From IMG/VR virus record IMGVR_UViG_2718217715_000001: a stretch of 35,710 bases of DNA, one strand, 5' to 3'. Position numbers: made by a program. The DNA is from a virus. Lineage: Duplodnaviria > Heunggongvirae > Uroviricota > Caudoviricetes. Position 1 is the first letter of the stretch. The number at the start of each line of letters is the position of its first letter. Below, in pieces: positions 1-6,000 of the stretch.

Positions 1-3000
1 TCCGTAACGCCTCTGCCACGCGCGTAACGTGACAGGGATTAAGGGTAAACTAATTGATTTTGCAAGTTTTTATTTTACCCTGCTTTCTTATGGGGCATAC
101 ATGGGACACTTTCAGATAGTCTTTTGTTAAGGAGTTCTATCTGTTCGTGATTGTTGTCTTTCATCCATGCTCCGTAAACATTGAATACCATTTGTGCGTT
201 TGTGTGGCCCATCTGGCTTGCGATAAAACTAGGATTAGCTCCTGCGGCAAGTGACCAGCATGCATAAGTATGCCTGGATTGGTACGATTTTCTGTGTCTC
301 AGACCTGCGCGTTTTAAGATACTTGTCCATGACTCCCTGATGGAGTCAACCTTGTAGTGAGGTCCGGACAACTGCTGCTGTTTTGTTACCTGAGGACTAA
401 AAACAAAAGTGCATTTATGCACAGCAGTTCTCCCATATTCCCTCTGCTTCACCTCTACAGAATGTTGCTTTCCAAGCATGGTCATTTCCGCCTGGCTTTT
501 AAGAGCATCAATAGCTGGTTGAACCAGATGAATTGTCCTTCCGGTGCCTGCATCGGTTTTTGGTGGAGTGAATTCGCCAAGTTTTGTATAATTTCTACGG
601 ATGGTTATAGTCCTTGCTTTAAGGTCTATATCTTCCCATGCCAGCGATACCAACTCCCCGTGACGAATACCCGTGTATACAGCGAGAATCCACAGGTTTT
701 TTGTTTGTTGATGACGGCAAGCCTCAATAAAACGAATAAATTCGTCACGGGTGAGAGGATCTGGTTTTACCTTGGACTTTTTTAAGGGAGCCAGACCGTT
801 AAATGGGTTTCCTGAGGTATAACCATTATCTGTTGCAAATTGAAACATTCCAGCTATGGTTGTCATATAGTAGTTTACCGTGACCACTGAGCGCCCTTTT
901 ATGGAAGAAGTCTTTCCATTAGAAAGCTTTTGGTAACCGGTCAACAAATCTCTCCTTACGAAAAGTAAATCCTCTTTTGTTATGGATGAAACCAGTTTTT
1001 TTTCACCTAACATTGGTAACATGTTTTTAATTACTGACTGGTAACGGTTAAGTGCATTCGCACAAATCTCAATTTTCTTAAGGTCCAACCATTTTTCCGA
1101 AAGTGCCTTAACGGTTATCTCTCTTTTTCCCAGACCAATGAACCGCCCCGGAAATCCTGGAGACTAAACTCCCTGAGAAAGAGGTAAACAGGATGACTAA
1201 AAATACTCGTTTTTCCCCCGAAGTCCGTCAGCGGGCGATTCGTATGGTTCTGGAAAGTCAGGATGAATATGACTCACAGTGGGCGGCAATTTGTTCCATT
1301 GCCCCAAAGATTGGCTGTACGCCGGAGACTCTGCGTGTCTGGGTTCGCCAGCATGAGCGGGATACCGGGGGCGGTGATGGTGGGCTCACCAGCGCTGAAC
1401 GTCAGCGTCTGAAAGAGCTGGAACGTGAAAATCGTGAACTGCGCCGCAGTAACGATATCCTTCGCCAGGCTTCCGCTTATTTTGCGAAGGCGGAGTTCGA
1501 CCGCCTCTGGAAAAAATGATGCCACTGCTGGATAAGCTGCGTGAGCAGTACGGGGTCGGACCGGTATGCAGCGAACTGCATATTGCCCCGTCAACGTATT
1601 ACCATTGTCAGCAACAGCGACATCATCCGGATAAACGCAGTGCCCGTGCGCAGCACGACGACTGGCTGAAGAGAGAGATACAGCGCGTATACGATGAAAA
1701 TCATCAGGTGTACGGTGTGCGTAAAGTCTGGCGTCAGTTGTTACGGGAAGGAATCAGGGTGGCCAGATGTACAGTGGCACGTCTCATGGCGGTTATGGGA
1801 CTTGCCGGTGTTCTCCGGGGTAAAAAGGTCCGTACGACCATCAGCCGGAAAGCCGTTTCCGCAGGCGACCGCGTAAACCGTCAGTTCGTGGCAGAACGTC
1901 CTGACCAGCTGTGGGTGGCTGATTTTACTTACGTCAGCACATGGCAGGGCTTCGTCTATGTGGCGTTCATCATTGATGTGTTTTCCGGATGTATCGTGGG
2001 GTGGCGAGTCTCATCGTCTATGGAAACGACATTCGTGCTGGATGCACTGGAGCAGGCGTTGTGGGCCCGTCGGCCGTCCGGCACAGTCCATCACAGTGAT
2101 AAAGGTTCTCAGTATGTATCACTGGCCTATACGGAGCGACTAAAAGAAGCAAAACTGCTGGCATCAACAGGGAGTACAGGTGACTCGTATGACAACGCGA
2201 TGGCGGAGAGCATCAATGGTCTTTACAAAGCGGAGGTAATACACCGTAAGAGCTGGAAAAACCGTGCAGAAGTGGAACTGGCCACACTAACGTGGGTGGA
2301 CTGGTATAACAATCGACGATTGCTGGGAAGGCTGGGCCATACTCCTCCGGCAGAAGCAGAAAAAGCTTATTATGCTTCCATCGGAAACGATGATCTGGCA
2401 GCCTGAGTTCACAGATAAAACACTCTCCAGGAAACCCGGGGCGGTTCATACAATTATTTGTTATTGTGCATCATTCTGGTTATTAGCTCAGACGCTGGCT
2501 TATATTCCTACAGGGATTGCTTATGCTATCTGGTCAGGAGTCGGTATTGTCCTGATTAGCTTACTGTCATGGGGATTTTTCGGCCAACGGCTGGACCTGC
2601 CAGCCATTATAGGCATGATGTTGATTTGTGCCGGTGTGTTGGTTATTAATTTATTGTCACGAAGCACACCACATTAAAAATAATTTGTTTTTAAACGACT
2701 AAAATATGGAGGCTCTTATATTTATATGAGCCTCGTTTTATGCTTTTTGTTAATGTCTTTATTTTTTATGTATTCTTTTGTGCTTTCAAGATTATGGCGT
2801 GAGAAAATTGCAATACGATTATTGTTGTATATTCAAGATAATGTGACCTTAATTGTCTTTTTAAATAAAAATTAAACAAAAGTTATATCCCACCACTAAG
2901 GTTTATAAAAGCATACGTTAGCAGGTGTCACCATGAAAAAAGCCATAGCATATATGCGATTTTCATCACCAGGTCAGATGTCTGGCGACTCATTGAACCG

Positions 3001-6000
3001 ACAGAGAAGACTTATTGCTGAATGGTTAAAGGTAAATAGTGATTATTATCTTGATACCATAACATATGAAGATTTAGGATTAAGTGCATTCAAAGGAAAG
3101 CATGCACAATCAGGAGCTTTTTCGGAATTTTTAGATGCTATAGAGCATGGTTATATATTGCCAGGAACTACATTGTTAGTTGAAAGTCTGGACAGACTTT
3201 CAAGAGAAAAAGTCGGTGAAGCGATTGAACGTCTGAAATTGATTTTGAATCACGGTATTGATGTTATAACTCTTTGCGACAATACAGTCTATAATATTGA
3301 CTCTTTGAATGAGCCATATTCATTAATAAAAGCCATACTTATAGCACAAAGGGCAAATGAAGAAAGCGAGATAAAGTCAAGTCGGGTTAAATTATCATGG
3401 AAGAAAAAACGGCAGGATGCACTGGAATCAGGTACGATTATGACGGCGTCTTGTCCGAGATGGCTCTCCTTAGATGACAAAAGAACGGCTTTTGTTCCAG
3501 ACCCCGACAGGGTGAAAACTATTGAGCTAATTTTTAAACTCAGGATGGAAAGGCGCTCATTGAATGCAATAGCCAAGTATTTAAATGATCATGCTGTAAA
3601 GAATTTCTCAGGAAAAGAAAGTGCATGGGGGCCTTCTGTAATTGAAAAATTATTAGCGAATAAAGCTCTGATAGGTATATGCGTACCTTCATATCGTGCA
3701 AGAGGGAAAGGGATAAGTGAAATCGCTGGCTATTATCCCAGAGTCATATCAGATGATTTGTTTTACGCTGTACAGGAAATTCGGTTGGCACCTTTTGGTA
3801 TTAGCAATAGTAGCAAGAATCCTATGCTAATAAATCTACTTCGAACAGTTATGAAGTGTGAGGCTTGTGGTAATACCATGATTGTTCATGCGGTATCTGG
3901 AAGTTTGCATGGCTATTATGTTTGTCCGATGAGAAGATTACATCGATGTGACAGGCCATCAATAAAGAGAGATTTGGTTGATTATAATATCATTAATGAA
4001 TTGCTTTTTAATTGTAGCAAAATTCAACCAGTTGAAAACAAGAAAGATGCTAATGAAACTTTAGAGTTAAAAATTATTGAGCTTCAGATGAAAATTAATA
4101 ATTTAATCGTTGCATTGTCTGTCGCGCCTGAAGTTACCGCTATAGCAGAGAAAATAAGACTATTAGATAAGGAATTACGAAGAGCTTTGGTATCATTGAA
4201 AACTTTGAAGAGTAAAGCGGTGAGTTCACTTGGTGATTTTCATGCTATTGACTTAACCAGTAAAAATGGGCGAGAGCTATGTCGTACACTTGCCTATAAA
4301 ACATTCGAAAAAATCATAATCAATACAGATAATAAAACCTGTGATATCTATTTTATGAATGGCATTGTTTTTAAACACTATCCTTTAATGAAAACAATAT
4401 CCGCCCAGCAGGCGATAAGTACTCTCAAATATATGGTTGATGGAGAGGTTTATTTTTGAGTAATAATCACTTTTTCAACCGTGCTATGGTATGAAAGTAA
4501 AGTAACTACTATGATATTAACTATCGAGCAAGAATATCCCCAGGCACTCAACAGGGCGCAGGTCAACGTGAATCGGTCATGACACGACACCGATTTTGCG
4601 GAATCAATGTTGCTTATGAATACAACATCCCGCTTAGTACATGTTCAACACATCAGCAAATTTTGAACTGGGTGTGGCACTTAACTGAAAAAACATGGAT
4701 GACACAAAATGTTACTCGTCGCTTCATTGAAGTAGCTTGTGGATATCACAAGCTAGACTATCGCCAATGATATTCAATTTTTGATTTTTTAGTCTCAACC
4801 TTCCATAATAATGTCACCGGAGCTTGAACAACTCCGGTGACTTCTGCGCATTTAAGGGGACTTAAATGCGACCACAATCTGAACTCCTTACCTTGTCACA
4901 GATGCAGAAATGCACCTGCGATGTCTTGCATCCAGCGTTTGATCTCTGCGGAGGTGAAGCGTGAACCTCCCACAAGATGGCATCAAATTACATCGCGGTA
5001 ACTTCACCGCTGTCGGTCAGCAGATCCAGACTTATCTGGAAGACGGCAAATGCTTTCGCATGGTGCTTAAACCGTGGCGCGAGAGACGCAGTCTTTCCCA
5101 GAATGCACTCAGCCACATGTGGTACAGCGAAATCAGTGAATACCTCATCAGCAGGGGTAAAACGTTCGCCACTCCAGATTGGGTAAAAGATGCTCTCAAA
5201 CACACTTATCTCGGTTATGAAACCAAAGAACTGGTTGATGTCGTAACCGGTGAAATCACCACCATTCAGTCATTACGTCATACCTCCGATCTCGATACCG
5301 GAGAGATGTATGTCTTCCTGTGTAAGGTTGAAGCCTGGGCGATGAATATTGGCTGCCACCTGACTATTCCGCAGAGCTGCGAGTTCCAGCTGCTGCGCGA
5401 CAAGCAGGAGGCGTAATGGCTACACCGCTTATTCGTGTCATGAACGGACACATCTACAAAGTACCAAATCGTCGTAAGCGTAAACCTGAGCTGAAGCCAT
5501 CCGAAATACCAACTCTGCTCGGATATACCGCCAGCCTGGTTGATAAAAAATGGTTGCGACTGGCAGCAAGGAGGAATCATGGCTGATTTGAGAAAAGCAG
5601 CGCGTGGTCGGGAATGCCAGGTAAGAATCCCTGGCGTATGTAATGGCAATTCTGAAACGTCTGTACTGGCACATATCCGGCTGGCTGGATTGTGTGGCAC
5701 CGGTACCAAACCGCCAGACCTGATTGCCACCATTGCATGTTCTGCCTGTCACGATGAGATCGACCGTCGCACGCATTTTGTTGACGCTGGATATGCAAAA
5801 GAATGCGCGCTGGAAGGTATGGCGAGAACACAGGTTATCTGGCTGAAAGAGGGGGTTATTAAGGCGTGAATACCTACAGCATCACATTACCCTGGCCTCC
5901 GAGCAATAATCGCTATTACCGCCATAATCGCGGGCGCACGCACATCAGCGCAGAGGGGCAGGCATACCGCGATAACGTCGCCCGAATCATTAAAAACGCA

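Follow-up and report, generated by a model that had tools for sequence, protein, structure and literature searches.

The gene ybcK (positions 2933-4459, plus strand) of a 35,710-nt stretch of Caudoviricetes DNA (IMG/VR record IMGVR_UViG_2718217715_000001; the whole stretch is called the window below) encodes a 508-amino-acid large serine recombinase. An original prediction made from the sequence had proposed that such an enzyme usually acts as the integrase or transposase of its own element, and that the AT-rich segment around ybcK, bracketed by two hairpins, may be a nested or remnant element within a prophage. Our analysis points instead, with a probability of about 0.55, to a displaced prophage-integrase gene, a passenger in the variable slot that DLP12-like lambdoid phages have between ren and ninB/ybcN, and not to the integrase or transposase of a nested element. 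The idea of a remnant of another element's integration module is reasonable, because the relatives of YbcK occupy the integrase position of their prophages; a discrete nested element bracketed by the hairpins was not found. ybcK is not the integrase of the window prophage, and in the prophages that carry it a tyrosine integrase of the prophage itself was responsible for integration, at argU, icd or mlrA. The gene and its family were already known, and the prediction had correctly described a known gene, not a new system.

The presence of a recombinase with a zinc ribbon in this segment was confirmed by the Pfam matches of the open reading frame (ORF), which were Resolvase (PF00239, E = 9e-19, residues 4-161), Recombinase (PF07508, E = 2e-14, residues 191-284) and Zn_ribbon_recom (PF13408, E = 8e-8, residues 302-357). 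YbcK also matched the PHROG 'integrase' family phrog_95 (E = 2e-119). An AlphaFold2 model (mean predicted local distance difference test score 82.7) shows long helices at about residues 346-429 and then a C-terminal beta domain. When the model was compared with the PDB by Foldseek, the best fold matches were full-length serine integrases, namely 9dxd_A (E = 4.9e-19), PhiC31 (9tep_A, 1.4e-13), Bxb1 (9iu2_A, 1.9e-13) and the LI integrase of Listeria (4kis_C, 2.4e-10); the template modelling scores were low (0.24-0.48), as is expected for flexible multi-domain proteins. A plain sequence search of the PDB gave no match, and YbcK is therefore a remote member of the family. When 31 homologues of 28-61% identity were aligned with it, R9, S11, Q15, D87, R88 and R91 were invariant, and Y7, C309, C312, C331 and C339 were at least 90% conserved. 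All of these catalytic and cysteine residues were invariant among 28 Escherichia coli YbcK protein variants. YbcK is thus a bona fide large serine recombinase with an intact catalytic serine.

Among 5426 complete E. coli genomes, 1424 carry ybcK, and every copy covering most of the gene had at least 96.6% identity; no diverged paralogue was detected in these genomes by sensitive blastn. The gene was intact in 85 of 86 E. coli copies, among which 45 nucleotide alleles and 28 protein variants were distinguished. Polymorphic sites were distributed over the first, second and third codon positions as 29, 8 and 93, and the pairwise ratio of nonsynonymous to synonymous substitution rates (dN/dS) among five alleles was 0.04-0.24, with dS up to 0.17. 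These values show that ybcK is under purifying selection. The prophage sites inspected were argU (DLP12 of K-12, and strain 41), icd (O157) and mlrA (the window). ybcK is also carried by sequenced phages such as Perceval, Turner and 4A7, and the active phage Perceval has its own tyrosine Int and Xis at the usual place in addition to ybcK. Related prophages that do not have ybcK exist. The gene is therefore not uniformly present in related prophages, and a variable downstream boundary and an invariant Ser11 were also found, and on these points the original prediction is not refuted.

The gene order in all 80 IMG/VR viral contigs was consistent with ren, emrE, ylcJ, ybcK, variable cargo, hairpin and ybcN, with no differing neighbour or orientation of ybcK, and the same ren-to-ybcN order was seen in six individually inspected records. 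Pairwise comparisons placed the edges of the variable slot at the 3' end of ren (about 5793-5801 of the K-12 locus L002) and at L002 9864, which equals window 4779/4780. Both edges are common to prophages with unrelated contents, and other contents of the slot were two hypothetical genes, an inverse autotransporter gene with a hydrolase gene, and an antirepressor-like gene with a HEPN gene. The K-12 cryptic prophage DLP12 carries the same gene (98.4% nucleotide identity, 508 amino acids; a 'recombinase family protein' of uncharacterised function) and has the order emrE-ylcJ-ybcK in the ren-ybcN slot. On the other hand, DLP12 lies at argU whereas the window prophage lies at mlrA in O157:H7, the window emrE is truncated by an IS3-family element, and ybcK is followed in K-12 by ybcL-ybcM but in the window by a 320-bp remnant with a short ORF (ORF63). 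The small ORF between emrE and ybcK, ylcJ (2726-2875, plus strand; Pfam YlcJ-like, E = 1e-34), encodes a hydrophobic, poorly conserved product of 49 amino acids. It was intact in 43 of 84 loci, 23 loci carrying the same frameshift and 15 having no start motif. No match to the PADLOC defence-system models was obtained.

The distance from the ybcK stop to the ybcN start ranged between 500 and 4033 bp, and at least 11 length classes could be distinguished. Most types have the first 415-428 bp after ybcK in common, including the 3' half of an antirepressor-like gene, and diverge beyond that point. Homology to a full-length, 202-amino-acid copy of the antirepressor-like gene begins 113 bp past the ybcK stop, and the right edge of the block falls within this gene. 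Breakpoints after the stop codon were located at about +0-39, +66, +283, +326 and +415-428; in the Perceval type the break is at +283, and the K-12 sequence differs already from about the stop codon onwards. The window type is derived from the 1394-bp type by two internal deletions, of which one lies between CTATC repeats. Its 3' flank of ybcK (4460-4562) accordingly consists of 66 bp common to all non-K-12 types and then a 42-bp remnant of the antirepressor-like gene (P22AR C-terminal domain), which was left by a 226-bp deletion between the CTATC repeats. The variable cargo of this slot version is ORF63 (4579-4770, plus strand), a 63-codon phage gene that matches phrog_2559 (unknown function) over its full length (E = 4e-51); ORF63 has no annotation in the identical RefSeq record. 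Because the breakpoints occupy many positions and often coincide with gene ends, they fit ordinary phage mosaicism and deletion and not exchange at a single site of a recombinase. A fixed point of cassette exchange beside ybcK was considered and rejected on account of this scatter.

The position of the relatives in other genera supports the view of ybcK as a displaced integrase gene. Homologues of 50-59% identity are the last prophage gene in Atlantibacter, Yersinia, Erwinia, Ewingella and Pantoea. The prophages concerned have Mu-like, myovirus-like, siphovirus-like or lambda-like tail modules, and the terminal relatives abut host DNA (ssrA/smpB, lepA or an aldehyde dehydrogenase gene) or another prophage. 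This prophage-terminal spot is the integrase position. A location at an element end adjoining target DNA is therefore seen for the relatives, whereas ybcK of E. coli is always internal. None of the non-E. coli relatives was linked to emrE, ylcJ, ybcL, ren or ybcN. Lambdoid prophages of Atlantibacter have a homologue of 60% identity in their nin region, where it lies between P and NinG/Q; it is 83% identical to the terminal Atlantibacter enzyme. DNA homology between the nin and terminal Atlantibacter contexts comprises the gene and 68 bp upstream only, and stops exactly at the stop codon. The integrase lineage thus moves between phage positions as a bare gene, and the nin copies have become separated from the DNA that followed the terminal copies, the side on which an att site would lie. 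The recombinase genes were AT-rich relative to their surroundings in 11 of 13 measured loci. Beside the recombinase gene of four prophage-terminal relatives (L009 9092-9684, L013 12207-12772, L183 9212-9845 and L185 9325-9890) there is a pair of small ORFs of about 80 and 107-130 amino acids, one of which has a weak Peptidase_S24 match; no such pair occurs at the E. coli locus.

The compositional part of the original prediction was borne out, as the G+C content of 2678-4960 is 36.4% and that of ybcK alone 36.0%, compared with 52.3% for the whole window. The lowest-GC 2.1-kb stretch in all 35.7 kb begins at 2601 (35.6%; mean 52.9%, sd 5.2). Both hairpins also lie where they had been placed, fold as claimed and are more stable than shuffled controls. 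They do not, however, bound the segment, since the left one lies inside the AT-rich block and the right one 33 bp past the slot edge. The left hairpin (2709-2740, plus strand; centroid -13.6 kcal/mol, z = -3.0) resembles an intrinsic terminator with a T-tract, overlaps the start codon of ylcJ and is followed by GTTTTATGCTTTTTG. Across 68 loci, its arms showed only changes that preserve G-U pairs on the plus strand; it is therefore apparent that it is an RNA terminator for rightward transcription out of emrE. This hairpin is missing from the 'empty' loci in which emrE is joined straight to ybcL.

The right hairpin (4813-4841) has a perfect 10-bp stem (GTCACCGGAG/CTCCGGTGAC), a 9-nt loop, a folding energy of -18 to -21 kcal/mol and a z score of -3.4. 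It belongs to a conserved nin-backbone block (4780-4960, plus strand) that is 85-93% identical to prophages without ybcK. A promoter-like sequence, TTGATT-17-CATAAT (4781-4809, plus strand), is situated directly 5' of the hairpin, and a small ylcH-like ORF (4866-4964, plus strand) overlaps the ybcN start (4961). In eight diverged prophages the right arm of the hairpin and both hexamers were invariant, whereas the spacer was variable. A second copy of the promoter-hairpin-ylcH' block is present upstream of an antirepressor-like gene in another prophage (locus L181 2660-2797); on this account the block behaves as a module-boundary sequence and not as the end of a ybcK element, and it may mark a boundary at which modules are exchanged. 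The hairpins were thus rejected as element ends, the left one being a plus-strand RNA terminator inside the block and the right one being conserved in prophages that have no ybcK.

Taking ybcK as a displaced passenger, the block would spread by homologous recombination in its conserved flanks, that is, the 3' end of ren and the promoter-hairpin-ylcH-ybcN block, and ordinary deletions and illegitimate joints would add to its variation. In a lysogen, ybcK would be silenced by the upstream terminator, by a Rho-dependent terminator in its leader and by nucleoid-protein silencing of AT-rich DNA. In an intact phage, the gene would be read with the N-antiterminated delayed-early transcript from pR; ybcK has the same orientation as O, P, ren and ninB. 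YbcK probably still performs the predicted strand exchange of the attP x attB type through Ser11, with a site pair that is not recognisable beside the gene. The window copy would be an orphan in a defective prophage whose early region has been deleted. A Rho/NusG-dependent terminator has been reported in the ybcK leader (PMC4150792), and Hfq binds ybcK DNA in a polyphosphate-dependent manner (PMC10954037); both reports are consistent with silencing of ybcK in K-12. Knock-out and over-expression phenotypes of ybcK have been reported with no mechanism, and concern sabinene tolerance and rifampin-induced persistence (PMC7181518; PMC5845583). No study or assay of YbcK recombination was found in the literature.

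Sites for YbcK were sought in the flanks of the gene. A direct and inverted repeat search that covered four slot versions gave one significant result, a repeat of the Perceval type that is considered below. In the window flanks, the proposed search for repeats matching att sites gave nothing above chance, and neither att-like repeats nor dyads beyond chance were present there. A dyad scan of both flanks against shuffles (22-bp arms, 2-bp core) yielded nothing above the 95% null except the terminator, and no shared motif was detected downstream of the stop codons of 30 ybcK homologues. Recombination sites are thus still unrecognised beside ybcK, as the original prediction had cautioned. As for mobility, emrE is joined straight to ybcL-ybcM in 2627 of the 5426 E. 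coli genomes. A synthetic K-12 empty-site query nevertheless had no match of at least 97% identity in these genomes. A boundary-agnostic query, composed of the emrE 3' end and the hairpin-ybcN block, found just two genomes with both parts close together. One of them, NZ_AP045833.1, was also matched by the ybcK search and retains only about the first 156 nt of ybcK, which indicates an ordinary internal deletion. There was no sign of recent or precise ybcK excision in the 5426 genomes. The three emrE-ybcL loci inspected lie in a prophage remnant between fliE and yedK, which is a highly reduced DLP12-like prophage remnant; this locus (L007 4820-6962) has no ylcJ-ybcK, but an nmpC-like porin gene and a portion of the hairpin block are present in it.

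Several observations weigh against a mere passenger, and some of them would suit a nested integrative element made up of ylcJ-ybcK with or without emrE, of which YbcK would be the integrase or transposase and which would have one end close to the emrE stop and the other a few hundred bp past ybcK. Compared with the emrE-ybcL loci, K-12 has a clean extra 2083 bp (L002 6237-8319) that consists of ylcJ, ybcK and 309 bp. This segment looks like an insertion and is the best argument for one; its left junction lies 7-8 nt past the emrE stop and inside the palindrome TTAAAAATAAtTTGTTTTTAA. In the Perceval type, ylcJ-ybcK is flanked by a direct repeat of 38 bp (84% identical), with one copy in the emrE stop codon region and the other 283 bp past ybcK. 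Three relatives are flanked by diverged direct repeats of 229-380 bp that are 68-83% identical (L179 9623-9851 and 12609-12831; L119 9281-9657 and 12216-12592; L180 9013-9332 and 12970-13291); these repeats duplicate part of an adjacent gene (DUF1367, replication protein P or a pilV-like gene) and could be due to homology-facilitated illegitimate recombination or be a footprint of the recombinase. We nevertheless regard a nested element as very improbable. The filled K-12 and 'empty' emrE-ybcL backgrounds are only 85-92% identical, and this difference of 8-15% means that the presence/absence event is old or reflects recombination between lineages. The second copy of the Perceval repeat, which is absent from the window, K-12 and strain 41, contains a short emrE-like 3' end and then its own terminator. 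The most plausible source of this copy is the 3' end of another emrE-like gene, a fragment of which came in together with the hydrolase cargo, although this accounts for the pattern only in part. The palindrome after the emrE stop was also tried as an attL core; homology with the loci that have emrE only does end there, but the terminator is homologous between the two Perceval copies, and the palindrome junction is therefore no clear crossover point. Moreover, the right boundary is not the same between types, dyad symmetry does not exceed that of shuffled controls, and the left flank in the window was destroyed by the insertion sequence (IS). More than one target context would suit an element with its own integrase, but a single context was found in the 80 IMG/VR loci and in all inspected genomes. 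The proposal that ybcK serves an element of its own is not supported, in view of its constant slot in 80 contigs and six records, the three attachment sites of the host prophages and the lack of precise excision in 5426 genomes.

A further objection to a passenger comes from the sequence conservation. Purifying selection implies that the YbcK protein does something, and a role-less passenger should decay, as ylcJ does; the real puzzle is the strong conservation of an apparently site-less integrase. In addition, expression of ybcK from pR is deduced from strand and position only. The site negatives themselves are weak evidence, because serine-integrase att sites have weak symmetry and just a 2-bp core in common, and accordingly share little sequence. 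It is possible, though we hold it clearly less probable than a displaced passenger, that YbcK functions as an accessory recombinase, for the phage or for the host, at sites that lie apart from its own gene, for example in a second integration system, in programmed inversion or deletion, or in integration into another resident element. The selection on intact alleles, the presence of ybcK in active phages and the homologue in the Atlantibacter nin region are in favour of such a role, as are the reported phenotypes for which no mechanism was given (PMC7181518; PMC5845583), and it would give lambdoid phages a reason to retain the gene although a tyrosine Int and Xis are already present. In contrast, the prophages of the 80 contigs and six records are canonical, none being permuted to end at ybcK and none inverted; repeat, dyad and motif searches found no candidate sites; and ybcK is silenced in lysogens (PMC4150792; PMC10954037). 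A related and somewhat more doubtful proposal is that YbcK-type integrases were recruited repeatedly to the lambdoid nin region, in Escherichia, Atlantibacter and possibly Pantoea, and were kept beside the tyrosine Int and Xis for a second site-specific reaction. Candidates for this reaction would be the use of an alternative integration site, the capture of accessory DNA beside the gene or its exchange, and programmed rearrangement, with the diverged repeats of the relatives as its footprints. Finally, YbcK might have been co-opted for a DNA-binding role without recombination, for instance as a regulator or a nucleoid-associated factor. The stress-tolerance and persister phenotypes have no link to recombination (PMC7181518; PMC5845583) and no sites were found, both of which would fit; the catalytic Ser, Arg and Asp are invariant in the 28 E. 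coli variants and 31 homologues, however, and a non-catalytic role needs no such invariance, which makes co-option very unlikely. A displaced integrase gene carried as a passenger therefore remains our preferred reading.

Compared with the integrases of PhiC31, Bxb1, A118/LI and TP901-1, YbcK has the same catalytic domain, recombinase domain and zinc ribbon with coiled coil. It differs from phage serine integrases in being only 14-19% identical to the solved ones, in being encoded inside a prophage that uses a tyrosine integrase, and in that no attP, attL, attR or directionality factor was identified for it. SpoIVCA of skin, TnpX of Tn4451 and CcrAB of SCCmec are large serine recombinases of elements with defined ends and observed excision. 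ybcK resembles their genes in being encoded inside a larger genetic element, but no ends, circles or empty sites were found for it. The morons and variable cassettes of lambdoid nin regions undergo mosaic exchange at conserved boundary sequences. The ybcK block is like them in that AT-rich accessory genes lie between conserved phage genes, with sharp slot edges and a terminator of their own. On the other hand, its cargo is a recombinase gene and not a host-benefit gene, and is better conserved than small ORFs such as ylcJ; instead of host-benefit expression in the lysogen, silencing has been reported for ybcK of K-12 (PMC4150792; PMC10954037).

ybcK is present in about a quarter of the complete E. 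coli genomes, including that of K-12, yet it is listed as uncharacterised. Since the gene is intact and selected and has neither sites nor mobility of its own, a search should focus on targets on which YbcK acts in trans and not on a nested element. Discovery of a target would give the genome-engineering toolbox an enterobacterial serine integrase whose site is known, and would account for the second recombinase kept by lambdoid phages.

The window from 2300 to 5200 is 100% identical to E. coli O157:H7 strain 4276, in which the corresponding lambdoid prophage adjoins mlrA. The local order is int', an IS3-family element, a 5'-truncated emrE, ylcJ, ybcK, a 320-bp spacer, the hairpin, the ylcH-like ORF and ybcN (4961-5416), downstream of which are ninE, ybcO, rusA, ylcG and Q. 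The truncated tyrosine integrase gene of the host prophage (75-1088, minus strand), which adjoins mlrA, is described in RefSeq as 'tyrosine-type recombinase/integrase, incomplete, missing N-terminus'. The orfA/orfB transposase genes of the IS3-family element were assigned to 1193-2406 (plus strand) by ORF calls and RefSeq annotation, and an ALIL frameshift pseudoknot is located at 1474-1590 within this element. The IS3-family insertion and an associated deletion fuse int' straight to the truncated emrE, and the early region from xis to ren is entirely absent, so that the prophage in the window is defective. The remaining 3' part of emrE (2449-2677, plus strand) has lost the first 104 nt, or about 35 codons; emrE homology begins at window 2449, equal to L002 6001, whereas the K-12 emrE start is at L002 5897, and the Pfam Multi_Drug_Res match covers profile positions 28-93 only. 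The annotated 95-amino-acid 'EmrE family' protein starts within the IS end and is without the first transmembrane helix.

Three tRNA genes with CAT, TCG and TCT anticodons follow Q, within window 7330-7945, and RefSeq calls the CAT one tRNA-Ile. Past the tRNA genes are the small RNA (sRNA) STnc100 (7691-7883, plus strand), the anti-GcvB sRNA AgvB (7884-7945, minus strand) and then a 648-amino-acid DUF6645 ORF at 8093. No toxin-like ORF was present in the post-Q interval, according to the window ORF list and the RefSeq annotation of the interval. Shiga-toxin phages have this arrangement of Q, tRNA genes, sRNA genes and DUF6645, and carry their toxin genes in that interval.

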